Assembly (NCBI GenBank): GCA_963827655.1
Contig: CAWHCF010000014.1
Coordinates: forward strand, 64,001 to 128,000
From: an uncultured Acidobacteriota bacterium
Lineage (GTDB): Bacteria; Acidobacteriota; UBA6911
Direction of reading: 5' to 3'
Length of the DNA: 64,000 bases
Every line of letters starts with the position of its first letter. Positions within the stretch are counted from its first letter, which is position 1. The notes beneath the pieces are model-generated. The model was not told where the DNA came from. It saw only the letters and a program-made list of their open reading frames with translations, and made no database searches. The position numbers and the translations under genes are program-made. Shown piece by piece: positions 4,037 through 60,823 of this stretch.

Positions 4037-5227
4037 TCATGCAGCAATGCTGGAGTGAGGATCGAGGACGAACTTCTTGGCCGCGCCTTTGTCGAAGTCC
4101 TTGTAACCTTGAGGCGCCTTGTCGAGCGAGATGACCTCGACGTTGACGGCCTTGGCGATTGCGATTTTCCCGTACAGTATAGCCTGCATCAGCTGCCGGT
4201 TGTATTTCATCACGGGACACTGGCCTGTCTGGAAGAAATGCGACTTCGCCCACCCCAGGCCGATCCGTATGCTCAACATGCCGATCTTGGCATTGTCGTC
4301 GATTCCGCCAGGATCGCCCGTCACGTAGAGTCCCGGAATGCCCAGCGCTCCTCCCGCGCGCGTGATCTCCATGAGGGAATTGAGCACGGTGGCGGGCGCT
4401 TCTTTCTTGGCTCCTTCGCCGTGACCGCGAGCCTCGAAGCCCACACAGTCGACCGCACAATCCACCTCGGGAACGCCGACGATGGCCTCGATCTGTTCCG
4501 CTACGGTCGCCTTCTTAGACACGTCGACGGTCTCGCACCCGAAGCTTTTCGCCTGCGCCAGCCGCTCGGGAATCAGGTCGCCCACGATGACACACGCGGC
4601 GCCAAGCAGGTGGCTGGCTGCCGCGGACGCGAGGCCAACCGGTCCCCCACCGGCAATGTAAACAATGGCTCCAGGCCCCACTCCGGCGGAAACGGCGCCA
4701 TGATACCCGGTGGGGAGAATGTCCGACAGGCAGGTCAGGTCGCGGATCTTCTCCATGGCCTGTGCCTTGTCAGGGAACTTCAGCAGATTGAAATCGGCGT
4801 AAGGCACCATGACATATTCGGCCTGGCCTCCAACCCATCCCCCCATGTCGACATAGCCATACGCGGCGCCTGGCCGTGCGGGATTCACACTCAAACATAC
4901 TCCGGTCTGACGCTCCTTGCAGTTCCGGCAGCGCCCGCAGGCGATGTTAAAAGGGACGGAAACGAGATCTCCTACCTTGATGAACTCAACGTCGCGTCCG
5001 GCCTCGAGAACCTCGCCGGTGATTTCGTGCCCGAGAATCAGTCCTTGCGGCGCCGTGGTGCGGCCGCGGACCATATGCTGGTCGCTGCCGCAAATATTGG
5101 TGGAAACGATCTTCAGAATCACTCCGTGCTCGCACTTTCTTTTTCCCAGAGACAACTTGGGAAAGTCGATGGTTTGGATCTCGACCTTGCCCGTTCCCAT
5201 GTACGCTACTCCACGATTGCTAGGCAT
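4037..5227 (-). CDS. fdhA: Glutathione-independent formaldehyde dehydrogenase
   Basis: NICGSDQHMVRGRT, LGHEITGEV, CGRCRNC, GAAYGYVDMGGWVGGQAEY and the C-terminal KKFVLDPH. Confidence 0.95.
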   Translation of the reverse strand: MPSNRGVAYMGTGKVEIQTIDFPKLSLGKRKCEHGVILKIVSTNICGSDQHMVRGRTTAPQGLILGHEITGEVLEAGRDVEFIKVGDLVSVPFNIACGRCRNCKERQTGVCLSVNPARPGAAYGYVDMGGWVGGQAEYVMVPYADFNLLKFPDKAQAMEKIRDLTCLSDILPTGYHGAVSAGVGPGAIVYIAGGGPVGLASAAASHLLGAACVIVGDLIPERLAQAKSFGCETVDVSKKATVAEQIEAIVGVPEVDCAVDCVGFEARGHGEGAKKEAPATVLNSLMEITRAGGALGIPGLYVTGDPGGIDDNAKIGMLSIRIGLGWAKSHFFQTGQCPVMKYNRQLMQAILYGKIAIAKAVNVEVISLDKAPQGYKDFDKGAAKKFVLDPHSSIAA

Positions 5228-5288
5228 CGCTTCTCCTCCTTGAATGATGTTTATCCTTGGTGTCTTCGCTCTTGTGGTTAATGCGTTC

Positions 5289-6776
5289 CTACGGCGCCAC
5301 CCAACCATACCAACGATGGCTGGGTTCCGCCCCCTCTTCGAGGTAGGCCATCTTCATCTGGCTGAGATAGTCTTTAGGAATCTCGTTTCGCTTCGCCTTC
5401 ACATCAACACCGAAAACCTTCGCGGCATTGAGGCCGAAAATCTGCGCTTTCACTTCCCGATTGAGCGCTGAATACTTGTGCTTCGCGGCAATCTCATCGG
5501 GAATCTCAAAGCGCCTGAACGCCTCGATCTGCCATTGAGGCGTGCCGTACCAGATCGAGTCGGTGCCCCAGAGCACATGATCGGATCCGAAGGCATCGAT
5601 GATCTGACCGAGCAGGTGCGCGCAGATGGCTGGCTGGGTCGTCACCAGTTGACCGAAAGTCGACCCGAGTTCCATGTAGATGTTGCTGATGCCCGGCTCT
5701 TTCTTTTTCATCTTGCAGAACTCGCTCGTCCATGGAATCTCACCCGTCTTCTCGAAGATCTTATCGACCGAGCCGGCGCTGCGCAAACCTGAGTGGTAGA
5801 CCAGGAATTGGATTGTGGGAAAATCCTTGGCCGCCTTGATCAGGTCGCGCGGGTGATTGTAGTCCTCGACCGGACCCAGAGGGAGTCCTTTGTGCACGCA
5901 GATGCGCGGCACTTTGAGCGCGCGCGCCCTCTCCAGCATCGGGTAGGTCACCTTTTCGTCGTCCATCCACCAGCCTCGATCGAACCCTTTTGGAGCTGCG
6001 CCCGTATACGCCTTCCAGGCATCGATCTTCAGGCTGTTGGCCTGCAGGTCCATGAAATCGAGGTCAGCTTTGCCGAGTTGCGGCGTAACCAGGCCGTGAG
6101 CCAACATTCGCTGCGACCGAGTAACCCGATTAATCTCATCCCGGATGTGCGTCATTTCCTTGGGAGTGACGACCGCCTCCTGCGGGTAAGGCCCGGGGGG
6201 AGTGCTGATCAGGCCGAGGGAGGTCTCGCTATCAAGGAATACCTCCTTGATAAAGTTCTCCCACGAGAGGTCTGCCATTGTTCCCCGATCTCCAGCCAGT
6301 TTGGGATTCAGGCCGGCCGCGCGCGTCTGCTTGCGCAGCGCCAGGAGCCCTTGCTTGGTAACGGCTCCCTTCCGGCTTCCCTCGGCATCCGCCGGATCGT
6401 AACGAGTGCTCACGTAGTGCGTCTGAACGTCGAAAATGAAGAAAGGTTCGCCTTGACGCTGGGCGAACGCGGCGGCTTCCACTTTTTCAATTTCGAGCAC
6501 GTCAAAGAACTTACCGAAAACCGTGTTCATCGCCAGGAGGGCCGTGGCCATGCCTCCGCCGGTCCGCAGGAAAGCGCGGCGGCTCATTCCCAGTCTGCGG
6601 GAAGCAACCTCGGCGGCGCGCTCAATCAGGCACTCCACACGAGCCTGCTCGGGAGTCTGCGGCAGAGGGTTGAACTCTTCGTTCGAAACGATCCGAGTCG
6701 GAATCGGTGAGCCGGAGGTAAACCCTTGGGTCATTCCGGGCCGGACTGTGAACAGATTTCGATTCACTCGAGTCAT
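5289..6776 (-). CDS. Amidohydrolase_2-family metallohydrolase with an internal twin-arginine-like segment
   Basis: DVQTH, CVHKG, LVYHSG and WGTDSIW motifs; MSRRAFLRTGGGMATALLAM preceded by SPIPTRIVSNEEF. Confidence 0.85.
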   Translation of the reverse strand: MTRVNRNLFTVRPGMTQGFTSGSPIPTRIVSNEEFNPLPQTPEQARVECLIERAAEVASRRLGMSRRAFLRTGGGMATALLAMNTVFGKFFDVLEIEKVEAAAFAQRQGEPFFIFDVQTHYVSTRYDPADAEGSRKGAVTKQGLLALRKQTRAAGLNPKLAGDRGTMADLSWENFIKEVFLDSETSLGLISTPPGPYPQEAVVTPKEMTHIRDEINRVTRSQRMLAHGLVTPQLGKADLDFMDLQANSLKIDAWKAYTGAAPKGFDRGWWMDDEKVTYPMLERARALKVPRICVHKGLPLGPVEDYNHPRDLIKAAKDFPTIQFLVYHSGLRSAGSVDKIFEKTGEIPWTSEFCKMKKKEPGISNIYMELGSTFGQLVTTQPAICAHLLGQIIDAFGSDHVLWGTDSIWYGTPQWQIEAFRRFEIPDEIAAKHKYSALNREVKAQIFGLNAAKVFGVDVKAKRNEIPKDYLSQMKMAYLEEGAEPSHRWYGWVAP

Positions 6777-6931
6777 GGGAGTTCCTCCTGCAAACAAATC
6801 CACCACCAGGACGCCAAGACACTGAGAGCGCCATCATACACCCAAAAAAATCGACAGGGCAAAAGTACGATGCTTCGCGTTTCGTGGCGTCTTCGAGTCT
6901 TGGCGGTTATGAAAACGAAAAACAACCGAGG

Positions 6932-8833
6932 TCAGTCGCGCGTGCCCAGGGTGTAGGCGTTGAGGCGGTTGTCCTTCGACGAGTAGAGGAGGGCCGAGGC
7001 CTCGTCGCTGATGAAGCGCTGATCCGGGTCGCTCAGACCGATTGCGCGCTCGGGTACGCCCGTGTTGATGTTGACGCCGATCAGGCCGTTCCCGTCCCCC
7101 TTCAGGTCGGTGTAGAAGTACATCCATCGGCCGCGCAGCGCGGACAGTCGCTGCCGGCGCCCCGCGAAGCGCGACAACGCCTCGAGCCGAGAGGCGGGGT
7201 CGAGACGGTCAAGCAAACGCTCCTCGACGTCGACCGAGGGCGCCGGCACGTCGATCGATGGGCGCGTCGCCAGCCGTTCACGCGCAGAGACGGTCGCGCC
7301 GCCCGCGCGGGAGAGGATGCCGAAGGGCGAGAAGCGCTCGCGCAAATAGTGCCGCGAGTAATCCGTCGCGAGGCTCGTCAGATTGGGCGCCGTCGCATGC
7401 GCCGCGAGGCCCGACCAGCGCAGGCCGTCGACGGCGCTCAATAGCCTGACGCCGCCGAATACGGTCGTCGCCGCGGCGCCGTAGCGAAAGTAGAGCGAGG
7501 CGGCGCGGGCCGTGACCGCCGTCACTGTGCCGAAAATACTGCGACCCGGTGGATCGTGGCGCGCGCGCCACACCGCGCGGTTTGCCGCCAGGTCGAAGGC
7601 GGCAATCTCATTGCGGCCTCCGACAACTGCATGGCCGCGCTCGTTCAGCAGGGCGAAGGCGGCGCGCTCGACGCCGTGCGGGATTTTAGCGCGGGGCTGG
7701 CCCGTGGATGCGTCGATGGCGATGAGATCGTCGCCATCGGCGACGACGACGGTCGAGGCGTCGGGCAACAGCATGTTGGTAATGCCCTTGTCAGCCCCCT
7801 TGAAACGCCAGAGCGTCTTGCCCGTGGACGCGTCAATGGCGCTGACTCCGTATGGACCGCGCTCCACCGACTGGCCGTCTTCGAGGCGCGTGAACCGCCC
7901 GCCTGTCCGCGCATAGAGCGCTCCTCCAGCCAGCGCGATCTCCGGCGTCAAACCCAGGTCTTTGGCCTCCCACACCTCGCGGCCGTCGGCCCGCGAGATG
8001 GCGCGCACGCGGCCCCGCCCGGAGAAGTAGACGAAGCGCTCGTCGGCAACGGGGTCGGCCTCGGTGAGCGCCAGCCCTTCCTCGTTGACGCGGAACTTCT
8101 CGCGCCGGCGCTCCTCGCCCGTCCGCGCGTCGAGCGAGGTGACGCCCTCATAAAAAAGGTAGAGGCGGCCGTCGAAAAAGGCCGGCGGGCGGTAGTTGTC
8201 GAGCGTGTAGGGGAGATCCTCGTCCTCCGAGACGCCAAGGAGGGCGGGCATCATCTCGACCTCGCTATCAAGCTCGCGCTTCCAGAGCTCGCGCCCCCGC
8301 CTCAGGTCGAAAGCCTGCACTACGGCCTTTCGCTTGAATTCACCCCGCGCGCGTCCACGCGCGTCGCGCACGACGACGACGGCGAGCAGCCCGGAGCCAG
8401 GGTCGAACGCCATCTGCATAACCGAGCCGTGCGCTTTGTCGCCGCGCCAGAGCGCCCCGCCCGTGAGCAGATCGACAGCCTCGAGCCGCGTTCTGTCGCC
8501 GCGTTCGAAACTCAGCAGCAGAACATCCGTGCCCGGAACCGCCGCCACGTCCGTCTCGTATAGCCGCGCGTCCTTCCGCCGCCACAGTACCTCGCCGGTC
8601 TCGGACGTCACCGCATACAGCGACTTCTCGGTGCCGATCACCAGCACGCCCAGCTCCGTCGCCTGGTAGAACACGACGCGTCCGTCGAACCTTGCCGACC
8701 AACGCGGCCCTGCCGCCTCGATCGAGCACACGCCCCAAATCAGAAGGCCCAGCGCAAGCCGCAGGCTGATGCGCCCGGGAGCTCGCGGCCGGCCGCGTCT
8801 TTTGACAGCACCGGTATCAAGCACGAAGAACAT
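6932..8833 (-). CDS. Secreted PQQ-like/BamB beta-propeller repeat protein
   Basis: N-terminal hydrophobic signal and repeated A-D-x-x-T-G-x-x-x-W units. Confidence 0.75.
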   Translation of the reverse strand: MFFVLDTGAVKRRGRPRAPGRISLRLALGLLIWGVCSIEAAGPRWSARFDGRVVFYQATELGVLVIGTEKSLYAVTSETGEVLWRRKDARLYETDVAAVPGTDVLLLSFERGDRTRLEAVDLLTGGALWRGDKAHGSVMQMAFDPGSGLLAVVVVRDARGRARGEFKRKAVVQAFDLRRGRELWKRELDSEVEMMPALLGVSEDEDLPYTLDNYRPPAFFDGRLYLFYEGVTSLDARTGEERRREKFRVNEEGLALTEADPVADERFVYFSGRGRVRAISRADGREVWEAKDLGLTPEIALAGGALYARTGGRFTRLEDGQSVERGPYGVSAIDASTGKTLWRFKGADKGITNMLLPDASTVVVADGDDLIAIDASTGQPRAKIPHGVERAAFALLNERGHAVVGGRNEIAAFDLAANRAVWRARHDPPGRSIFGTVTAVTARAASLYFRYGAAATTVFGGVRLLSAVDGLRWSGLAAHATAPNLTSLATDYSRHYLRERFSPFGILSRAGGATVSARERLATRPSIDVPAPSVDVEERLLDRLDPASRLEALSRFAGRRQRLSALRGRWMYFYTDLKGDGNGLIGVNINTGVPERAIGLSDPDQRFISDEASALLYSSKDNRLNAYTLGTRD

Positions 8834-47454: not shown

Positions 47455-47976
47455 TCAGAAAAGCCGGGACAGAATGTCGGAAGGAACCTCGGGGCGGAGG
47501 AGCGGATAGGCTTCCAGGATCCGTCCGATATCCGCGAGATCTTTTTGCCGCTTGCTGGGACGCCGCCCCTCGTCGGTCACTGCCCAGACTTTGGCACGCA
47601 GAAGATCCTTGATATCTGCGACCGGCATTTCTATTCCCAGGACCGGCATGGGTCTTGAGCGCGCAACGAAATCGAAGTAGCGCGGATCCGTTTGGATCTG
47701 CACGCGCAAGTCCGAACCTGGAAACGACAGGTTAATGCTGTGGGGGAAGCGTTCGGCTTTGAAATCGCGAGACAACTTTCGCACGGCATCTTCGATCTGC
47801 TCCGAAGCCAGCACCAGGTCAAGATCGAGACTGACGAGAGGTTCGACATAGGCGTTGATGCCCTGGCCCCCGATAACGCAGAACTTGATCTGCGCCTTCT
47901 CGAGCCACTCGAGGAGCTTGGCGAGCGCGCCGGACTCATCGGACACTATGGTTCTCCAGAACTCTGCGGCAAGCAT
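47455..47976 (-). CDS. Putative nucleotidyltransferase (AbiEii/MNT-like)
   Basis: IGGQGINAY...SLDLDLV and KVWA...RPSKRQKDLADI. Confidence 0.7.
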   Translation of the reverse strand: MLAAEFWRTIVSDESGALAKLLEWLEKAQIKFCVIGGQGINAYVEPLVSLDLDLVLASEQIEDAVRKLSRDFKAERFPHSINLSFPGSDLRVQIQTDPRYFDFVARSRPMPVLGIEMPVADIKDLLRAKVWAVTDEGRRPSKRQKDLADIGRILEAYPLLRPEVPSDILSRLF

Positions 47977-47982
47977 CACTTC

Positions 47983-48063
47983 GATTGACGATTGACGATT
48001 GACGATTGACGATTGCAACGTTCGCAATCGTAAATCGTCAATCGTAAATCGTCAATCGTCAAT
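47983..48063. repeat. (ATTGACG)n heptamer inverted pair
   Basis: About 4.5 forward units, TTGCAACGTTCGC, then five AATCGTM units. Confidence 0.92.
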
Positions 48064-48531
48064 CTACTGGACTTCGGTTACGGGTTTTCCATAGGGGATG
48101 ACCGGTTGGATCCGGCTAGAGGGCTCGGCCGATTCAATCCGCCACGACTCGCCCTCTTTCCTCAAGCTCATGCGCTGGCGCTCGTTCTGATCCTGGTAGA
48201 CATATTCGACCACGAGGGTTGCGGCGCCTTCGCCGGATCGCTGAACATCATAGACAGCGACGCCCTTCACCTTTTCAATGCTCTCCCTGAGATACTCCGA
48301 GAACCGGGGGAGTGTCATTCCGCGCGCCGTAACCTCCAGTTGCTCGCGCATCGACCCGGTGAAGCAATCCATGTATCCCTCGACGCTTCCCGCGCGGGAT
48401 TGATCCAGCACCCGCCAGATCACATTCTCCGGTTCCTCGGGAGTCTTGGGCCGCTGACGGTAGGACAGAAAGACTGCGCCGGCAACCAGCGCAAGAGTCA
48501 ATGCGAATGCGAAAGCCTTTTTCGAAGCCAT
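48064..48531 (-). CDS. Small membrane-anchored protein (possible NTF2-like/DUF4878 fold)
   Basis: N-terminal TM; TPEEPENVIWRVLD...LRKEGESWRI; last gene of the ATPase-hflCK operon. Confidence 0.7.
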   Translation of the reverse strand: MASKKAFAFALTLALVAGAVFLSYRQRPKTPEEPENVIWRVLDQSRAGSVEGYMDCFTGSMREQLEVTARGMTLPRFSEYLRESIEKVKGVAVYDVQRSGEGAATLVVEYVYQDQNERQRMSLRKEGESWRIESAEPSSRIQPVIPYGKPVTEVQ

Positions 48532-48538
48532 GTCTCAC

Positions 48539-48607
48539 GATTGACGATTTACGATTGACGTTCCACGTTCTCCAAAATCGTCAATCGTAAATCGTAAATC
48601 GTCAATC
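48539..48607. repeat. (ATTGACG)n heptamer inverted pair inside the operon
   Basis: GATTGACGATTTACGATTGACG ... AATCGTCAATCGTAAATCGTAAATCGTCAATC; contains the hflK stop codon. Confidence 0.9.
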
Positions 48608-49618
48608 GTTGGGTCTCTTCTCGATCAAATCGAGATCGATTCCTCCAGATCCGGATTCAACCACGATCTTCTTCAGCCGAGGCAGCACCTCCTCCATCGT
48701 CTCCAGAAAAAGCCGGGCGCTCGTGACATCGCGCGCGCGGGCATACTCCGTCGCCAGGCTTACGAATCGAGCTGCGTCACCCTCGGCCTCGTTGATCTTG
48801 CGCTCGCAGTAACTGGTGGCTTCGGCCGTCAAGCGGGAAGCTTCGCCGCGCGCCCGAGGCACCACGGCATTTAAATAGCTTTCCGCCTCCTGCATGATTC
48901 GGTCCTTGTCTTCTCGAGCGCTTGCCACGTCGCGGAAGGCTTCCAGAACTTCGTCGGGGGGAGCGATGGATTCAAGGCTGATGCTCGAGATGAGCGCGCC
49001 GCAGCGGTACTCATCAAGCAGGTTCTGGGCGGATGACTGCACTTCCTGCTGTACCACGACCTTTTCGGTCGTAAGCAAGTCATCCACCCTGCGCCGCACA
49101 ATCACGGCGGAGAGCGCGGTCTCCACGGATTTGGCGATCACGGATGTTACATTGCTGGCGTGGAAGAGGTACGCGACCGGATCCTGCACCGTGTACTGCA
49201 CCGCCAGACGCACATTAATGATGTTCTGGTCGCCGGTCAGGAACTGCGCTCTGACTTCGCCGGCGCCGCGGCCGAGGACCTGATCCGGGGCTTCTACTCC
49301 GACGGTGAGGCGTTTGGTTTCAAGCACCTTCAGCTTGTGAACCTGGGCCAGAGGATACGGCCAGGTCCAGTGAATGCCGGGAGGGACGCGTGTCTCGTGG
49401 ACCCGGCCGAACAACAAGACTACCGCCTGCTGGTCGGCAAAAACGAAAAAGAAGCCCGAGAGCACATAAAGTACTGCAAGCACAGCCAGAAGGTGACGCC
49501 GGTTCCGGCGCTCCAGCCAGTGATCGGCTCGGTGTGCAATCGAATGAAACAGGCGGAGACCACGGCCCTGGTCGTGGTGGTGCGAGTGATTATGGCCGCT
49601 AGTGTTATTGTGCCCCAA
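48602..49618 (-). CDS. hflK: HflK-like SPFH protein with His-rich N-terminus
   Basis: PGIHWTWPYP, FLTGDQNII, AFRDVASARED and ARGEA; TTG start after GGAGG; N-terminus MGHNNTSGHNHSHHHD. Confidence 0.9.
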   Translation of the reverse strand: MGHNNTSGHNHSHHHDQGRGLRLFHSIAHRADHWLERRNRRHLLAVLAVLYVLSGFFFVFADQQAVVLLFGRVHETRVPPGIHWTWPYPLAQVHKLKVLETKRLTVGVEAPDQVLGRGAGEVRAQFLTGDQNIINVRLAVQYTVQDPVAYLFHASNVTSVIAKSVETALSAVIVRRRVDDLLTTEKVVVQQEVQSSAQNLLDEYRCGALISSISLESIAPPDEVLEAFRDVASAREDKDRIMQEAESYLNAVVPRARGEASRLTAEATSYCERKINEAEGDAARFVSLATEYARARDVTSARLFLETMEEVLPRLKKIVVESGSGGIDLDLIEKRPND

Positions 49619-50483
49619 CCTTACCCCTCCCCTGGGTCAGCAGTTTCAAGAGTTCTGAATCTGAAGACAGGATGATGCTGGTCTTGTCGTCCAGGATTCG
49701 CTTGTAGGAATCGAGGGTCCGAACCAGCTTGTAGAACTGGGGATCGCGAGAGTATGCCTCTCCGTAGATCCGGGTGGATTCCGCGTCGCCATGACCGCGA
49801 AGCTTTTCCGCTTCGCGATAGGCCTCGGCCAGCATCACCTCTCTTTGCCTGTCGGCGTCGGCCCTGATTTGTATCGCCCTTTCCTCACCCTCGGCCCGGT
49901 ACTGCTTGGCGATTCTCTCCCGCTCCGCGCGCATACGGGCGAACACCGACTTCTTGTTCTGTTCGGGAAAGGTCAAGCGCTTGAGCTGCACATCCATCAC
50001 CTGGATTCCAAACTGATCGCCCGACACCTTGCGCCGAACCGCCTGAGTCACCTCGGCCGTTTTGATGCGGCTCGGCTCCACCGACACCAGGTCTTCCAGT
50101 TTCAGATTGCCCAGCTCCGCTGCCAGGGCCGCCCAGACGATGTCGTGGAGTCGCATCTCGGCGGTCACGACGTCTCCGACCGTCTGAAGGAAACGATTCG
50201 GATCCGATATGCGCCAGATGACATCGCTATCAAGAACCAGATTCTTCTTGTCGCGAGTCAGGAATTCGGAAGGCCTGGGGTTGTATACCAGGAGCCTCTT
50301 CTCAAACCGCAGCAATCGCTGGATCGGCCACTTCAAGTACAGGCCTGCATGCAGGACGGTGCGTACCGGTTTGCCGAACAACGTAACGATGCCCGTCTCG
50401 GTCTCCGGCATAACATAGAATGAGTTCCAAACGATCAGGACGGCGATGAGTACCAGCGCCGCACGCTTCCAACGATCATTCAT
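49605..50483 (-). CDS. hflC: HflC-like SPFH protein
   Basis: FLTRDKKNL, RMRAERERIAKQYRAEGEE and DPQFYKLVRTLDSY. Confidence 0.92.
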   Translation of the reverse strand: MNDRWKRAALVLIAVLIVWNSFYVMPETETGIVTLFGKPVRTVLHAGLYLKWPIQRLLRFEKRLLVYNPRPSEFLTRDKKNLVLDSDVIWRISDPNRFLQTVGDVVTAEMRLHDIVWAALAAELGNLKLEDLVSVEPSRIKTAEVTQAVRRKVSGDQFGIQVMDVQLKRLTFPEQNKKSVFARMRAERERIAKQYRAEGEERAIQIRADADRQREVMLAEAYREAEKLRGHGDAESTRIYGEAYSRDPQFYKLVRTLDSYKRILDDKTSIILSSDSELLKLLTQGRGKVGAQ

Positions 50484-50497
50484 AATCTCTCCATTTA

Positions 50498-50529
50498 AGC
50501 AGTCAGCTGTCAGCTATCAGCAGTCAGCC
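50498..50529. repeat. (TCAGCHR)n heptamer repeat
   Basis: AGCAGTCAGCTGTCAGCTATCAGCAGTCAGCC; similar run at 47338-47362. Confidence 0.75.
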
Positions 50530-50551
50530 ATCAGATTCTGCCTACTGCCTA

Positions 50552-53500
50552 CTACCGTTGCCTGCTACCGTCGCCTGCTTCCTGCTGCTTTTCCTTACCC
50601 GGCTCGACCAGGTTGAGCAGGTTCAAGTCTTTGGCATCCAGAAACAAGAATCTGCGCCTCCCAAGCTTCTTGGAATCGGCAATATACTTTTGCTTGTTGG
50701 GGAGCACCTGTTCAACGGTCTCAAAATAGAGCCGCAGGCTGGTGACCTCGGGAACCTTGCGATAGGCCTGCTCTCTTTCCGCGAAGCGGGCGCTTTCACC
50801 GCGACTTCGTTCGATGCGGGATTTGGAGTAACCCTCGGCCGCCAGAAGACGCGCGCGAGCCTGGCCTCGCGCCAGGGGGACTTGTTCCAACAAGTAACTC
50901 TCGGCTTCGTTGATGCGCGTGCTCTTCTCCTCCAGCGCGCTGGCGACGTCCCTGAACGACTCGACCACCTCCACCGGAGGATGAACGTCCTGAAGGCGCA
51001 CCGACAGCACTTCAAGCCCGCTGTCGTATCGTTTCAGCATCTCACTCAACTCTCCCTGCCACGCCAGCTCGATTTGAGATCTCTGGTCGGTCAGGATGGC
51101 ATCGAGAGGATGCCGCGCCACAATCCAGCGCAGCGTCCGCTCCGCGACTACACGAATCAGGGTCTCGGGTTCCTTTACGTTAAAGAGATAGAACGCGGGA
51201 TCGCGAATGCTGTACTGAGCCACCGCGTTGACTTCGACCAGGTTTTCATCGCCGGTAAGCATCAGCGATTCCTCGGCAACTTTTCGATAGCGTCCCTGCC
51301 GATGCTGCGTATTCCACTCGTAGACGCTCGGTCCCTCTTCGCCTGACGCGGCCTCCAAGTTAGTCCGGTAGCCGATCTCCACGACCTGAACCCGGCGCGG
51401 TGCCAGTCGAGTCACCTTCTCGATCGGCCAGGGCCAGCGGTAGTGGATACCTGGATCGAGGTTCACGGCCAGACGGCCGAAACGCCAGACCACGCCCACC
51501 TGATCGGGTCCCACCAGGACCAGCCCGGACAGTATCCAGAGCAACGTTATCGCCGCAACACTCCAATCGCGGATCGCGCGGCGGTTGTGCGAGAGCTTGT
51601 GTGAAAACTCGTGCCAACCATGTAGGGCCAGGTGCTGACGGGCGTGCTGCCAGCGATGCCGCCAGACGGACGCGGCGGCTGACAGCCGGGATTCCTCTAC
51701 CGCCTTTCCTTCGATCAGCAAGCGAACACAATTCAGGATCACAAAAAGAGAGGCCGCCTGGTGAACAATCGCCGCGATCGGCGGACTAAGATAGCCGAAG
51801 GCTGCGCCCAGGATCGCGATCAGATTCACGCCGAAGGCGAACAGGATAATGCTGGAACGGATGCGCTGGATGGTCTTGCGCGCGAAGGCGATAAGATCCG
51901 GGATCTGTTCGAGGCGATCCTTGAGGAAGACTACATGAGCCGCTTCGGCGCTTATGTCCGCGGCGCCCCGCCCCATCGCAAGGCCCACGTCAGCGACCGC
52001 AAGGGAAGGTGAGTCATTGACGCCATCGCCGGCCATCAGAATGCGCAGTCCCTCGTTGCGCAGTTCGCGAATCTTCTGGGCTTTGTCCTCCGGCAGCAAA
52101 CGGGCATAGACCTCGGAGATGCCCGCCTGCCGGCCGATGTTTTTTGCCGCCAGCTCCTCGTCGCCGGTTACCATCAAGATGCGGGAGATTCCCATTTCCT
52201 TGAGGCGCAGCACCGCGTCCGCAGCATCCGGGCGGAGAGGGTCGCTGAGACCGATTACGCCGATCGGCTTGCCATCCGCCAGCACAATCACTCGTGTCTG
52301 ACCACTGTGCGCGCCGGCGAAGAGGGCGGCCTCGGCCCAATCCAGGTTTTCGGCGGCAGCTTCGCGAGCCAGAGCGAGGTTTCCGACCCGTACCTGCTTG
52401 CCGTCAATCCGGGCCTGCACTCCCAGCCCGGGGCGTATGGAAAAATCCTTCGGGTCCTGAAGGGCGAGTCCGCGACGGGCCGCCTCCTTTACAATCTCCC
52501 GTCCCAGCAAGTGCTCGGACGGTTTTTCCGCGGCCGCGGCCAGAGCGAGTAAATCGTCCTCGGGCACACCGGGTGCGGGCACGACGTCGCTCACACGGGG
52601 GCGGCCTGCCGTCAGAGTGCCGGTCTTATCGAAGGCAACGGCCCGAACCCGCGCCAGCGCCTCGATAATGGTCCCCCCTTTGACGAGCACTCCCTCCCGC
52701 GCCAGACGCGCGATCGATGCCGCTACCGCCGCAGGAGTCGCCAGCACCAAAGCGCAGGGACATGCAACAATGAGCGCGGCGACGGCTCGAAGCGTCTCTC
52801 CGGTGAAGAAGTAAATAGCGCCGCCCGCGACGAGGACCACGGGGAGGAAGTACTTGGCAAATTCGTCCGCCGTGCGTTCTATCGGAGCGCGGTGTTTCTG
52901 AGCTTCAGCAATAAGACGGCTGATACGAGCCAGGGTCGTGTGCTCGCCCACCCTCTCAGCCCGGGCTTCGAGCACGCCGTATTCATTCACACTGCCGCTA
53001 TAAAGGGCATCCCCGGGGCTCTTCTGGGCCGGAAGGGGCTCACCGGTGATCATGCTCTCGTCAACCGAGGACTGGCCCAGCACGACGATCCCATCCACCG
53101 GAACCTTCTCTCCGGCCCTGACTATGACGGTATCGCCAACCCTCACCTCATTGGGATGTAGCTCGACCTCGGCCCCGTCGCGCCGGACGCGGGCCACCGT
53201 GGGGGTCATTTGAACAAAACCGGCTATCGCCCGCTTGGCGCGGGCGACGGTGTAGTGTTCCAGCCCCTCTCCCACCAGCATGATGAACATGACTTCGGCG
53301 GCGGCGAAGTATTCACCGACAGCGACGGCAGCGATGGCCGCGACTGCGATCGCAAGGTCCGCCGACAGCCGACGACTGAGCAGGTCGAGCATGGCCTGGT
53401 AGATGATCTTGTAGCCCGCGACAATTGCGATCAGAAGCGCCGTGTTGAAGCCAAACAGGGTGGTAAACTTGCCGAGACCGTTCAGCAGCAATAACACCCC

Positions 53501-53608
53501 GACGGCCGCGGTGAAGGCAAAGTAGCCCCACATCGATGTGCCATGCACATGGACGTGGTCCCCATGCGTACCGGGGGAATGATCATGATCATGAAACGAT
53601 CCGCTCAC
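50552..53608 (-). CDS. P1B-type heavy-metal ATPase fused to a C-terminal HflK/SPFH domain
   Basis: His-rich N-terminus; [25 protein letters not shown] and GDGVNDSP; then TM + [19 protein letters not shown] and [11 protein letters not shown] in the same frame. Confidence 0.93.
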
Positions 53609-53677
53609 TCAAGCTCCCTTTGAATAGACAATCATTAACATAAAGAGGCCGGGACAGAAAGCCTGATGCTTCCCAAA

Positions 53678-53748
53678 AAGTAGAAAGTAAAAAGTGCTGA
53701 GTTGAAAGTTGCCTTTTTACTCAGCACTCAGCACTTTTTACTTTTCTT
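53678..53748. repeat. AGTGCTGAGT / ACTCAGCACT short-repeat inverted element, copy 2
   Basis: AAGTAGAAAGTAAAAAGTGCTGAGT ... TTTTTACTCAGCACTCAGCACTTTTTACTTT. Confidence 0.75.
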
Positions 53749-53770
53749 AGGGCTATAATCACTGACTCAT

Positions 53771-55018
53771 ATGCCGCGCACGAACTCAATCGAGATCATT
53801 CGCAAAACGCTGGATCTTGCCGGCCACGAGCTGCAGATCCTGCATCAGATCAGCCAGACCATAAGCTGCAGCCTTGACCCGGACCAGATCCTGCGGCACA
53901 TCATCGACCTGGTGGTCGACGTCACGCGCGGAGATTCCTGCCTCCTGTACCTGCTCGACGAGACCGAACAGTCACTCATCCTGAGGGCTTCCAAGAACCC
54001 TCACCCCCGGATCATTGGCAACATCTCGCTCAAGGTCGGCGAGGGGATCACCGGTTGGGTGGCGCGTGAGGCCAAACCGGTGGCGATTCCCAGGCATGCG
54101 AGCAAGGATGCCCGCTTCAAGTTCTTTCATAATCTGCCGGAGGACCGTTACGAAGCCTTTCTCTCGGTTCCCATCATCGCACCCACCGATCGCATGATCG
54201 GAGTCATCAACGTGCAGCATCGGCGGGCGCATCGCCACACCGAACAGGAAATAACCCTCCTGTCGATAATCGGACATCAGGTCGGAGGGGCAATCGAAAA
54301 TGCCCGCCTCTATCAGGAGACGAGCCGCCGGGCGCAGCATCTTTCGGCGCTGGCGCAGGTCGGGCAGATCATCGTCTCCGGGAAATACCTCGAGGAAATG
54401 CTGCAGCTCATCGTCAGCTTCGTGACCGAAATGATGCCGGCCCGCGTCTGCTCGATCATGCTGGTGGATCGGAAAAAGAACGAACTGGTGCTGAAGGCGG
54501 CAAAGTGCTCCAGCCAGGAGTACTGGCAGCGACCCAACCTGAAGATCGGACGGAGTCTTATCAGCCGGGTCGTCAAAGAAAAACGGCCGCTGATTGTCCG
54601 CGACGTAACCCATGAGGTCGAGTATCGCTATCCGGAGCTAGCCAAAAGGGAAGGTGTGCGCTCTCTCCTGTCGGTCCCGATGATCGTCAAGGACCATGTC
54701 ATCGGCGTGATCAATATTTATGCCGCCGAGGAACGCGAGTTCTCCGATGAGGAAGTCCGCCTGCTCTCGACCGTGGCCGACCAGGCAGCCCTGGCAATCG
54801 AAAACACGAAGTTGATGGTGGAGGCGCAGGAGAGCCAGGAAGCTCTTCATGCGCGCAAGCTGGTCGACCGGGCCAAGAGCATCCTGCAACGCCAGGCGCA
54901 GCTTTCTGAGGACGAGGCTTACCGGCGGCTCCAGGAACAGAGCATGCGCACACGGCGCTCGATGCGGGAGATTGCCGAAGCCGTCATTCTCGCCCACGAA
55001 ATGCAGACCAACCGCTAG
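53771..55018 (+). CDS. GAF-GAF-ANTAR RNA-binding regulator
   Basis: Two GAF domains (LKVGEGITGWVA...FLSVPI; SLLSVPMI...VIGVINIY). C-terminal ANTAR RKLVDRAKSILQ...SEDEAYRRLQEQSMRTRRSMREIAEAVI. TATAAT at 53754-53759. Confidence 0.93.
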   Translation: MPRTNSIEIIRKTLDLAGHELQILHQISQTISCSLDPDQILRHIIDLVVDVTRGDSCLLYLLDETEQSLILRASKNPHPRIIGNISLKVGEGITGWVAREAKPVAIPRHASKDARFKFFHNLPEDRYEAFLSVPIIAPTDRMIGVINVQHRRAHRHTEQEITLLSIIGHQVGGAIENARLYQETSRRAQHLSALAQVGQIIVSGKYLEEMLQLIVSFVTEMMPARVCSIMLVDRKKNELVLKAAKCSSQEYWQRPNLKIGRSLISRVVKEKRPLIVRDVTHEVEYRYPELAKREGVRSLLSVPMIVKDHVIGVINIYAAEEREFSDEEVRLLSTVADQAALAIENTKLMVEAQESQEALHARKLVDRAKSILQRQAQLSEDEAYRRLQEQSMRTRRSMREIAEAVILAHEMQTNR

Positions 55019-58306: not shown

Positions 58307-60823
58307 CTATCGGAGGGTCACGAAGAAAGGGCTTCCCCAAGCCATCTCGGGATCCCGCTCAGGCGCCTCGACATCCTTCTGAATGACCCGGACGTAATAG
58401 TAATGTTTTCCCGAAGGCGCTTCCGTATCCTGGTAGCTTCCGCGAAATTCCCTGCCCTTCCCCGGCACCGTGTAGACCACTTTGCCATCGCGCACCAGGT
58501 CGACGCGCACGAGATCGTTGCGCGCCCGCACAAAAATCTTCAGGCTCGGCTTCGCCGTCAGCTCGAATTCCTCTCCCATCGCGTGGTCGTTCATCGAGGC
58601 ATCCAGAATAATGTCGTCGGAAGCGGCAAAGGTCCGTCGTGCCAGCATCGCGTCGATGATTCCGCCGCGCGTCGCTTCTTTCACGTAGACACAGGCGTAG
58701 GAATTATGCGTGGAGAAGTGATCCGAGCTCGCGATGAACCCGTATCGATATCCTTTGTTGAGGGCGTCCTGGGCGAAGGTTCCCGACTCTTTCAGCTGCG
58801 ACTGTCCCCGTTTTTCACCCTGAACGGCTTCAGCCGTTTCGTACGAGCTGCGCGCCCCCTGATAGATTTCAAGCACCGGTTCGAACGCCGGATTCTCCCA
58901 ATCCCAGCGGCCGATCGACTGCGTGGTTTCGGCGAATGTGTGCGGGATGATTACAGCTTTTTGCGCCGAACCATTTCTGAGTACGCCGCGCATCCACTCC
59001 CACAAGCGCTCCGGCAGATTATCCTCCTTCACCCGCTCGCGATCCACCAGGCGCAACGGCGCGCCGCGCCGGAGAAAAACGATGTTGCGATGACCGCTCG
59101 GCGTCGCGAGGGAATGCTCGTACGCATACATGCCGTTGAAGGCCGGAGGATTCGAAAACATGTCCGCAGCCTTTTGAGTCCACCACCATTGATAGTCCCT
59201 CAGTCCGTCGGGCCAGCGGCCCCCGGTCGCCTGGTTATGATCGGTGGTACCGAGAAAATCCAGCTCGGCGGCGTCGAGGGCGTACCGGTAGGTGTCAAGA
59301 ATTGATCCGTCGACGCCATTGTGTCCGCGAATGTCGGTATGCCGGTGAAGATCGCCATACAGGAGCTGGTAGCGCTGCCCCCCTATGTTAGTACTGTAGC
59401 GCGAGCGCGGCACGGCGGCAGGGCGCTCCTTTTCCGGCACGACGGTCTGAAGCGCGGGGCCAGGCGCCGCCGGGCCAGGCGGAAGCGACGCACTGTAGAT
59501 CCGATAGGTGCGCGCTTTTTCCGATGAGGGAGATTGCTGAGGTTGGTCGCGGCCATCGCTGGAATAGACTACCTGAACCGTGCCGTCTTTCCCCAGCGCG
59601 ACCGCCGCGCGCTGGGAGTTCTGGCCCGCGCTGTTTTGGAGCTGAGCCGGAGCCGTCCAGCCATTTCCATTCCAGCGAGTGGCGTAGAAGTGGTAGATCT
59701 CGCTGGGTGCCGCGCTGGTCCAGTGGCGGAAAACCAGCACGGGCCGGTCATTCCCATCAAATGCCAGAAGCGGGAGTTCGGCGAAGCGCTCCATGCGGCC
59801 GGTCAGAACAGTCGAGACCGCGCTGGCCGGCTCCGCCAGCCCGTCACGCGAGTGAATCCGAATTCCGATCCTGCGTGACTGATGCAATCCTCCGCTTCCA
59901 GGGGCCGCAGTCTTGCTGCCTTGCGAGAAGTCCTTGCCCCAATTCTCGCCGGCAATATCGTAGACCACCCAGAGCCTGCCCTGCGAGTCGCAGGCGGCAG
60001 AGGCATGAAATTCGGCCTGGAGCGAATCGGCCACCGGCACAACCGGGCCCAGCTTTCCCCGGTCGAGGCTGCGCGCGTAGACGTTGTAATCGCCCGTCTG
60101 GTACGAATCCCAGGCGATGTAGACCATACCGCCGGAGTCAACCGCCAGGGCCGGCTCCCAATCGTTGGCGTCGCTGGACGAGACCCGGATGTCGCTGCTC
60201 CACTGGTCCCCTTTCAGCTGGCGCGCAAGAATATCCGATTTCCCGTTTCGGAATGCCTGCCAGGCCAACGTGATCGTTCCCGCGCGATCCGCGATCAGCC
60301 TGGGATTGACATCGGACCCTGCTGCGTTCGTCAAACGCCGGGGCGTCCCGGCTTTCCCGTCAGGCTCAATCCAGGCCGCGTAAACCTCCCAGTCTTCACC
60401 GGCGCGCCCTGACCAGGCACAAAGAAGACGTTCTCCGCGGGCGGCCATGACGGGGCCGTGGTGAGCCGCATTCCCATCGTTCACGATAATCGAGGGACGA
60501 CTCCGCTCCCACCTCGGGTTGCGAACGACCACCCGGTCGGAATCTCTGCCATCCCATTCCACCCACGAAGCCCAGAGCTCTCCGGCAGCCGTGGACACCA
60601 GCGATGGGAAGTCGGATTGATCCTCCGTGATCGAGACCTGACTGGACGCGATCACCGGATACTGTCTCTGTTCGGCCGCCGGGGTGGCTTGTCGTGGCTG
60701 CTGAACGGCCTCCACCTCCGCAGCCTGATCGCGCTTGATGGCACTCGAACTATTGTGCGACAGAAGCTGCCAGCCGGCACTCAGGATCAACAGCACAAAG
60801 GCGAACACGACACGTCCAAGCAT
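58307..60823 (-). CDS. Secreted beta-propeller + PHP-like metallohydrolase (DUF3604/CehA-McbA-like)
   Basis: Signal peptide; YGDLHRHT, LDFLGTTDH, GHRNIVF, IIPH and GFIASSDH. Confidence 0.8.
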   Translation of the reverse strand: MLGRVVFAFVLLILSAGWQLLSHNSSSAIKRDQAAEVEAVQQPRQATPAAEQRQYPVIASSQVSITEDQSDFPSLVSTAAGELWASWVEWDGRDSDRVVVRNPRWERSRPSIIVNDGNAAHHGPVMAARGERLLCAWSGRAGEDWEVYAAWIEPDGKAGTPRRLTNAAGSDVNPRLIADRAGTITLAWQAFRNGKSDILARQLKGDQWSSDIRVSSSDANDWEPALAVDSGGMVYIAWDSYQTGDYNVYARSLDRGKLGPVVPVADSLQAEFHASAACDSQGRLWVVYDIAGENWGKDFSQGSKTAAPGSGGLHQSRRIGIRIHSRDGLAEPASAVSTVLTGRMERFAELPLLAFDGNDRPVLVFRHWTSAAPSEIYHFYATRWNGNGWTAPAQLQNSAGQNSQRAAVALGKDGTVQVVYSSDGRDQPQQSPSSEKARTYRIYSASLPPGPAAPGPALQTVVPEKERPAAVPRSRYSTNIGGQRYQLLYGDLHRHTDIRGHNGVDGSILDTYRYALDAAELDFLGTTDHNQATGGRWPDGLRDYQWWWTQKAADMFSNPPAFNGMYAYEHSLATPSGHRNIVFLRRGAPLRLVDRERVKEDNLPERLWEWMRGVLRNGSAQKAVIIPHTFAETTQSIGRWDWENPAFEPVLEIYQGARSSYETAEAVQGEKRGQSQLKESGTFAQDALNKGYRYGFIASSDHFSTHNSYACVYVKEATRGGIIDAMLARRTFAASDDIILDASMNDHAMGEEFELTAKPSLKIFVRARNDLVRVDLVRDGKVVYTVPGKGREFRGSYQDTEAPSGKHYYYVRVIQKDVEAPERDPEMAWGSPFFVTLR

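Follow-up and report, generated by a model that had tools for sequence, protein, structure and literature searches.

The locus at positions 48064 to 53608 of the window, the 64,000-nucleotide stretch of contig CAWHCF010000014.1 analyzed here (from an uncultured Acidobacteriota bacterium), is one version of a conserved module in which a metal exporter joined to HflK is followed by HflC and by a second, free HflK. In the window, the exporter is a P1B-type metal ATPase, and its fusion to HflK is genuine. Our preferred explanation is that the module is probably a dedicated, paralogous SPFH assembly of the HflK/HflC type that tethers metal exporters, one of its subunits covalently carrying its client. 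What is novel is the conserved exporter::HflK module, HflK/C-type systems themselves being already known. A literature search whose coverage fell short of most subscription journals and supplements found no description of such a fusion. Annotation pipelines call the fused proteins "HflK" or "Cu+-exporting ATPase," names that each designate just one half, and the fusion architecture is therefore hidden in databases. The parts of the module are listed below (TM, transmembrane; pLDDT, predicted local distance difference test).

51716..53608, minus strand: P1B-type metal ATPase part of the fused gene (residues 1-631), with a His-rich N-tail, eight TM helices, CPC in TM4, DKTGT, and HQ in the last TM helix
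51584..51715, minus strand: cytoplasmic linker (residues 632-675), basic and His/Trp rich, modelled as a single long helix (641-674; pLDDT, 59-73)
50552..51583, minus strand: HflK part (residues 676-1018 plus stop), with a TM helix (676-693), an SPFH domain, and coiled-coil helices
51239..51364, minus strand: periplasmic loop of the SPFH domain (residues 749-790), with the motif YEWNxQHRxGRY, particular to exporter-fused HflKs and of low pLDDT
49605..50483, minus strand: hflC, 292 aa, 214.3 bits with TIGR01932 (cut-off, 134.4), a member of the module HflC clade
48602..49618, minus strand: free second hflK, 338 aa, 229.5 bits with TIGR01933 (cut-off, 159.4), TTG start with GGAGG upstream, and a His-rich cytoplasmic N-tail
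48064..48531, minus strand: fourth module gene, encoding a 155-aa protein with an N-terminal membrane anchor or signal sequence and an NTF2-like domain

The fused gene is a single intact frame

The fused gene runs from 53608 to 50552 on the minus strand. It starts with GTG, 7 nt downstream of the ribosome-binding site (RBS) AGGGAG, and encodes 1,018 aa with no internal stop. Pfam models located an E1-E2_ATPase domain at residues 134 to 304, a HAD hydrolase domain at residues 321 to 540, and a Band_7 domain at residues 699 to 904. With the NCBIfam models, residues 84 to 630 scored 562.1 bits as a heavy-metal P-type ATPase (TIGR01525; cut-off, 346.25), and residues 697 to 987 scored 230.1 bits as HflK (TIGR01933; cut-off, 159.4). 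The motifs of the pump were CPC (283-285), DKTGT (327-331), and HQAAS (616-620). Both sets of models and the motifs thus agree with a preliminary description of this DNA, made from the letters alone, according to which one 1018-aa frame joins a complete P1B pump through a His-containing linker to a full HflK.

A long frame of this kind could also arise when sequencing or assembly joins neighboring genes, or it could represent a decaying gene. One relative lends itself to such a reading: at locus L042 of genome G393 (G393:C1:1957000-1973000, 4323-7449), the fused gene is divided between a 749-aa and a 373-aa frame that overlap, through either a frameshift or a sequencing error, with the other module genes intact. 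In the window, however, the frame is intact, and a 1,660-nt contig from an independent soil metagenome run covers the junction (50550-52209) with 8 substitutions and 0 gaps. Moreover, an end-to-end alignment holds for 98 full-length fused proteins, that of the window included (90%-identity clusters), with the catalytic motifs kept in both halves, and 20 further genomes have frames of at least 1,000 aa. The preliminary description had named a stop or frameshift near 51600 to 51700, together with homologues that are never fused, as grounds for dropping the fusion; the gap-free soil contig and the 98 fused relatives dispose of both. The artefact explanation, to which we give practically no weight, is refuted.

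The distribution of the fusion was then compared in three samples. A search with the HflK part admitted only proteins of 559 to 1,782 aa, so that plain HflKs could not turn up; among the 120 matches listed, 97 were full-length ATPase::HflK proteins, 10 were truncated, and 13 were fusions of HflK to a cation diffusion facilitator (CDF). A phmmer search without a length filter against 1.84 billion representatives gave 9,159 matches at an E value of ≤0.001. The nearest 150 of these (50%-identity representatives) comprised 56 plain proteins and 86 exporter fusions, namely, 47 with an ATPase, 33 with a CDF protein (one of them recognized by Pfam), and 6 with an SO_0444/ArsP_1 permease. Finally, among 401 genomes of the window's phylum, 165 had any HflK match, and 21, including that of the window, had a match in an open frame of at least 1,000 aa, with 1 more in which the frame was split. 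This tally includes the unpublished genomes G152 and G049, both with ordinary HflK only. The source names of the fused relatives include Blastocatellia, Bryobacteraceae, and Acidobacteriota. At two loci, the longest frame of the fused gene was of 1,632 aa (L035:3550-8448, G260) or 1,224 aa (L041:8104-11778, G186), in which the ATPase match begins at residues 652 and 171, respectively; these frames have either a false upstream start or an extra N-terminal domain.

The module is conserved with three exporter families

The order fused gene-hflC-hflK2 was found in 13 of 13 related ATPase-type loci, which settles the question of synteny raised in the preliminary description. In the window, hflC and hflK2 overlap by 14 nt, as had been claimed for the operon as a whole, but the fused gene and hflC lie 68 nt apart; the gap between hflK2 and the small gene is 70 nt. 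The same arrangement was found with a second exporter. The order CDF::HflK-hflC-hflK2 occurred in eight of nine loci, the ninth contig stopping after hflC. These loci come from Gemmatimonadota, Zixibacteria, Spirochaetes, and unclassified metagenome-assembled genomes. Only a six-helix membrane domain (Cation_efflux, 9-197) precedes HflK in the CDF fusions, and their metal site is HxxxD plus HxxxD, which we take to be the zinc-type quartet. A third fusion, from the window's phylum, is a 747-aa protein in which a Pfam ArsP_1 permease, scoring 352 bits (cut-off, 300) with the NCBIfam model for SO_0444 family Cu/Zn efflux transporters, is joined to HflK. Its gene likewise precedes two Band_7 genes.

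The module also occurs on a conjugative plasmid of the alphaproteobacterium Aquibium oceanicum (NZ_CP018172.1), which encodes CDF::HflK, HflC, HflK, a PPIC-type peptidyl-prolyl isomerase (PPIase), and a heavy-metal ATPase, with an Nramp gene upstream. All 51 plasmid matches in PLSDB had less than 60% identity (32 to 37% for those listed), and the Aquibium record alone proved to carry the module. The spirochaete loci have the same PPIase (PpiD-like) as the fourth gene, with a P1B ATPase gene just upstream. Among Pseudomonadota genomes sampled, no adjacent double-HflK module was found; 260 of 401 genomes had one ordinary HflK match, and the 4 with at least two had all of them on different contigs.

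Two side observations concern the CDF-type loci. FeoB, for ferrous iron uptake, is encoded directly upstream of CDF::HflK in L047, L048, and L049, and a Cys-rich (CxxC...CPDC) open reading frame (ORF) of 130 to 145 aa follows the free hflK in L044 to L046.

The proposal that the pump and a dedicated HflK/HflC set belong together is thus borne out by the gene order, by its recurrence with two other exporter families, and by the separate clades described below. Since three unrelated exporter families have come to sit at one and the same position of a single HflK lineage, across at least five phyla and also on a conjugative plasmid, gene fusion is a strong argument for a role of this SPFH lineage in metal efflux. 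The structures of bacterial SPFH cages are known, and their clients and purpose are still debated. Here, the client of an SPFH lineage is written into the polypeptide, and it is a metal exporter. One operon with a defined cargo is also a tractable system for finding out what an SPFH ring does to a membrane transporter.

Module proteins form clades apart from canonical HflK and HflC

A tree of 90 rows placed the 41 module HflKs, fused and free alike, in a single clade (SH-aLRT support, 99) and the phylum's 13 canonical HflKs in another (99). Support was 90 for the group of 21 module HflCs (97 for 20 of them), and the canonical HflCs stood apart (100). A 58-row HflK tree was built under a site-mixture model without the split G393 row and without the spirochaete and Psychrobacillus rows, which have long branches. 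In this tree, one clade (99) united the free HflKs from modules of the ATPase, CDF, and permease types. Therefore, the two-HflK design predates the diversity of the exporters. The module HflKs and HflCs do not belong to the canonical orthologous groups, as they lay outside the canonical clades and had lower model scores than the canonical copies of the same genomes. A separate, adjacent, higher-scoring canonical hflK-hflC pair was present in five of five other fusion genomes tested.

In the window's own family, no HflK match at an E value of ≤1e-20 was found in six of six genomes, and the genome of the window has module copies only. Because of this distribution, the operon may have been acquired by transfer. 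No ftsH gene lies in the window, as already noted in the preliminary description, and the genome's single Peptidase_M41 match is on another contig. Likewise, no ftsH was found near the module in six genomes checked, each of which has one or two copies.

Topology of the fused protein and its extra loop

The fused protein was modelled with AlphaFold2 (pLDDT, 72.8). Eight TM helices were predicted for the pump, the last at residues 609 to 631, followed by a break, a long helix (641-674), the HflK TM helix (676-693), the SPFH strands, and long helices (879-950). Because eight helices leave the pump's C terminus in the cytoplasm, where the N terminus of HflK belongs, the fusion is topologically sound. 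The same fit holds for the CDF fusion, whose CDF domain has six helices. According to the model and the sequence, the fused HflK has the layout of HflK, a single TM helix with the N terminus inside, then the SPFH domain and coiled coil, with hflC adjacent.

The loop of the SPFH domain sets the fused HflKs apart. It is an insertion of about 18 residues, with YEWNxQHRxGRY in 14 of 14 ATPase fusions and YQWESRHxxGxY in 6 of 7 CDF fusions; it was not found in 21 free module HflKs or in 14 canonical HflKs. Among the 98 full-length ATPase fusions, His769 of the loop is invariant (98/98), and YEWN is present in 83.

The linkers of 25 relatives were 27 to 62 aa long and basic, with 5 to 14 Arg plus Lys and 0 to 10 His; with the 98 full-length fused proteins taken in, lengths reached 67 aa, and 29 of these 98 had at least 5 His in the linker. 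The His-rich N terminus claimed for the second hflK is present, with 9 His in 40 residues. In 44 of the 104 free-HflK homologues nearest to that of the window, the N-tail has at least 4 His (up to 26); for this count, 120 homologues were listed and 16 were dropped because a crude filter saw no membrane helix. The free-HflK N-tails of the 13 sampled genome loci had only 0 or 1 His. The cytoplasmic His tails emphasized in the preliminary description therefore recur among nearer relatives, in the free-HflK tails as in the linkers, but are absent from the 13 genome loci.

The pump represents a CPC/HQ type of P1B ATPase

Residues invariant in 25 sequences were D327 to T331 of the phosphorylation site, T188-G189-E190 of the actuator (TGE), G527, D528, G529, N531, D532, and P534 of the GDGxNDxP hinge, and C283 and C285 in TM4. 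Among the 98 full-length fused proteins, the TM4 motif is CPC in 95 proteins and CSC in the other 3; in the last helix, 97 have HQ and 1 has HE. No ferredoxin-like metal-binding domain was found in the pump by Pfam. The closest solved relative is sCoaT, a P1B-4 ATPase (PDB 7qbz/7qc0, deposited as "Cadmium translocating P-type ATPase"). Residues 10 to 631 of the fused protein aligned with residues 20 to 672 of 7qbz at 361 bits, from the His-rich N-tail through the last helix, and neither protein has a ferredoxin-like domain. However, 7qbz has SPC and HEGST where the fused pump has CPC and HQAAS, and the fused pump has HflK at its C terminus. Given these replacements, the metal site differs from that of 7qbz.

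The P1B-4 subgroup is defined by SPC in TM4 and HEGxT in TM6, and the TM6 signatures of P1B-1 (Cu) and P1B-2 (Zn) are MxxSS and DxG. The fused pump has CPC and HQAAS at the P1B-4 positions and agrees with neither of the other two signatures. It passed the NCBIfam models of both the Cd type (TIGR01512, 468 bits; cut-off, 313.5) and the Cu type (TIGR01511, 414 bits; cut-off, 397), so these models do not discriminate Cd from Cu here. In the ESM Atlas, only generic heavy-metal ATPase clusters were found. Judging from its residues, the protein appears to work as a P1B pump but outside the subgroups whose motifs could be checked, and the module defines a CPC/HQ subgroup. The pump probably transports a divalent transition metal, one from the Zn/Co/Cd/Fe(II) group.

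A proposed assembly and its alternatives

By homology to the E. coli HflK/C 24-mer, the fused HflK, the free HflK, and HflC would together build a ring with a dome on the periplasmic side of the inner membrane, and the E. coli HflK/C structures suggest that such a cage would enclose the pump. Pump-bearing and pump-free subunits would share the K positions, an arrangement that would fix how many pumps a ring contains and keep them from crowding. The ring would keep the pumps at a fenced patch of the membrane, and exported metal would emerge beside the Glu/His loop unique to the fused HflKs. In the window's clade, the His-rich linker and the N-tail of the free HflK, beside the ring helices, would probably bind substrate metal near the pump entrance. 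Candidate gains from such a ring are local hand-off or confinement of the exported metal, control of pump activity, and turnover.

Several points weigh against this interpretation. The full-length model is only moderate (pLDDT, 72.8), with the special loop at low confidence, and the placement of ring and pump is inferred from homology. The His-rich tails are absent from many members. The metal is not fixed by the sequence, since the Cd- and Cu-type cut-offs are both passed and the TM motifs match no checkable subgroup. How the three fused-HflK groups relate to one another is poorly resolved (support, 51 to 82), and a single fusion origin followed by exporter swaps is therefore not established. 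No hflK or hflC was found outside the module in this genome (90% complete) or in G221, so that here the module could double as the ordinary partner of FtsH. Finally, if the module is related to the hmtA cluster of Pseudomonas aeruginosa (see below), simple detoxification becomes less likely because that cluster is induced by Zn shortage and its pump has been reported to be an importer.

The alternative that gives the module back to FtsH would make it the cell's HflKC regulator of that protease, with the pump placed beside FtsH for turnover or quality control or with metal status tuning FtsH. HflK and HflC are known FtsH partners, the solved relatives are E. coli HflK structures with FtsH, the module proteins pass the NCBIfam equivalog cut-offs for HflK and HflC, and this genome and G221 have FtsH yet no other hflK or hflC over the cut-offs. 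We nevertheless regard this explanation as unlikely, although it keeps some weight: all five of the other fusion genomes tested have retained a canonical hflK-hflC pair elsewhere that scores better, the trees set the module proteins apart in their own clades, and ftsH, at one or two copies per genome, is unlinked in the six genomes checked. Canonical HflKC also seems dispensable in the window's family, as its six genomes lack an HflK match. Moreover, a role centered on FtsH leaves unexplained why only three exporter families are the fused partners among the 150 nearest representatives. A bolder idea, which we consider doubtful, is a periplasmic nanocompartment, in which the SPFH dome would be loaded with a chosen metal by exporters tethered to its wall and would serve as a protected chamber for folding or metallating newly exported proteins or for confining toxic metal before release. 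The invariant His of the periplasmic Glu/His loop specific to the fused HflKs fits this idea, and so does the retention of the design across three exporter families. It is also in keeping with the fourth genes, which encode membrane-anchored, probably periplasmic proteins (NTF2-like here; PpiD-like PPIases in spirochaetes and Aquibium), and with the secreted PHP/CehA-like metallohydrolase upstream in 6 of 14 ATPase-type loci.

In another explanation, the module would be the fused counterpart of the Zur-regulated hmtA/PA2437-PA2439 genes of P. aeruginosa and would serve metal acquisition or allocation under shortage rather than detoxification. HmtA (PA2435) is reportedly a Zn/Cu importer, a claim that is second-hand. 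This P1B ATPase is encoded with three HflK/HflC-family genes, and the cluster PA2434-PA2439 is upregulated 5.6- to 14.4-fold on Zn depletion (PMC4542158, Table 2), its proteins also rise on Zn depletion (PMC11761036), and Zur binds the PA2439 promoter (PMC8531726). Uptake genes also lie near some modules, FeoB upstream of CDF::HflK in three loci and Nramp near the Aquibium module. However, the likeness to the Pseudomonas cluster is drawn from gene content as given in papers, and the Pseudomonadota genome sample contained no adjacent double-HflK module. CDF and SO_0444-family transporters are efflux proteins by family definition, and in Aquibium the module has a heavy-metal ATPase gene for a neighbor and is carried by a conjugative plasmid. 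We therefore hold a role in metal scarcity to be distinctly improbable.

Comparison with known systems

With E. coli HflK/HflC-FtsH (7vhp, 7wi3, 9cz1), the module shares the equivalog models passed, the single N-in helix, the SPFH domain, the long helices, and the adjacent K and C genes; the match to E. coli HflK in the PDB was of 145 bits over residues 774 to 984. It differs in having two HflK paralogues per HflC, one with a whole transporter on its cytoplasmic end, in the separate clades, in the extra conserved periplasmic loop of the fused HflKs, and in the unlinked ftsH.

The closest described system is the hmtA locus of P. aeruginosa, which is alike by gene description only, a P1B ATPase being co-regulated with three HflK/HflC-family proteins. 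There, the proteins are separate, the SPFH genes come first, and the cluster is Zur controlled and induced by Zn shortage. The module hints at a reason for the co-regulation of a P1B pump with three HflK/HflC-like genes in P. aeruginosa. In a 2026 survey of SPFH proteins in strain PA14, the PA2437-39 genes constitute the PaFlo5-7 operon, and the terms HmtA and Zur do not occur in the part of the survey that was available (PMC13086221).

Stomatin and NfeD systems resemble the module in that SPFH proteins act on transport proteins and have small dedicated partner genes, but their contacts are noncovalent. Eukaryotic stomatin-family proteins regulate channels and transporters as SPFH scaffolds of this noncovalent kind. 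NfeD partners are encoded in bacterial SPFH operons, according to the PA14 survey (PMC13086221). No NfeD gene is present in the module, whose fourth gene is NTF2-like instead. The ferrosome (fez), with its P1B-6 ATPase, is similar in that a P1B pump is devoted to loading a compartment; it differs in its SCA/HNxxT motifs, as opposed to CPC/HQ, and in being a cytoplasmic lipid vesicle, and SPFH proteins are mentioned 0 times in the accessible text of its description (bioRxiv 10.1101/2020.01.10.902569).

The fourth gene, the leader, and neighboring genes

All 13 related loci encode a homologue of the 155-aa protein, in 12 of them by a gene immediately downstream. The fold of the 155-aa protein is NTF2-like, with an AlphaFold2 pLDDT of 87.6 and 32 Foldseek matches against the PDB at an E value of ≤0.001, the best being SgcJ (4ovm; E value, 1.5e-5) and the TM scores ranging from 0.43 to 0.59 across NTF2, SnoaL, and KSI folds. 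No Pfam or NCBIfam family matched it. Neither hidden Markov models nor hhalign found a homologue in the CDF-type loci; therefore, the protein is specific to the ATPase-type module. Three further features flank the module genes.

48537..48609, no strand assigned: palindromic heptamer array (CGATTGA/TCAATCG type) between hflK2 and the small gene
47982..48064, no strand assigned: second palindromic heptamer array, just beyond the small gene
53609..53770, minus strand: 5' leader/intergenic region, with a strong hairpin at about 53684-53746 followed by a U-rich tract, and the RBS AGGGAG before the GTG

Soil contigs stack up on the heptamer arrays flanking the 155-aa gene, with a summed depth of hundreds to more than 1,000 compared with about 5 to 10 nearby and with many loose ends, which marks the heptamer as a common short repeat. 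The arrays are perhaps a repetitive extragenic palindromic (REP)-like element or an mRNA-stabilizing hairpin. The ORF at 47455-48027 (minus strand; 190 aa) is a borderline AbiEii match (22.6 bits; cut-off, 22.5); because the heptamer repeat reaches into its 5' end, translation, if this is a gene, probably begins farther downstream.

The leader of the fused gene folded with a minimum free energy of -50.7 kcal/mol (z score, -3.64), and 1 of 200 shuffled sequences folded equally well. A search of the leader against Rfam gave chance-level matches only, the regions preceding the fused gene in 13 loci showed no palindrome that they share, and a scan for promoters and terminators did no better than on shuffled sequence. 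The divergent gene at 53771-55018 (plus strand) encodes a GAF-GAF-ANTAR protein and was not found in the 13 related loci. ANTAR proteins are RNA-binding antiterminators.

Five neighbors were considered as partners of the module, namely, the TonB-dependent receptor, the GAF-ANTAR protein, the AbiEii-like ORF, a BBP2 porin, and a SpoIIE phosphatase; all were set aside, as none has a homologue in the 13 related loci (0/13). This holds for the TonB receptor that the preliminary description had proposed as the outer-membrane partner. Contigs from soil RNA libraries match hflK2 and hflC as well as the junction and ATPase part of the fused gene; they cover only parts of the operon, and its uncovered parts carry no meaning. 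As DNA can occur in such libraries, they are a mere hint of expression.

A hydrophobic ORF of about 250 aa, without a Pfam or NCBIfam family, abuts the fused gene at L037:4403-5158, with homologues in L039 to L041, L043, L032, L034, and L042. It is absent from the window, co-directional with the fused gene in one genus (5 of 5 loci), and divergent in another (3 loci). The window also encodes, at 58307-60823 (minus strand), a large protein that has a signal or anchor at its N terminus and combines a propeller-like region with a metallohydrolase domain resembling PHP/CehA-McbA; it scored 71.6 bits with the NCBIfam model for DUF3604, below the cut-off of 80. PHP/CehA-like proteins of this kind are encoded upstream on the same strand in 6 of the 14 ATPase-type loci (the window, L031:11384-14437, L039, L040, L041, and L043).

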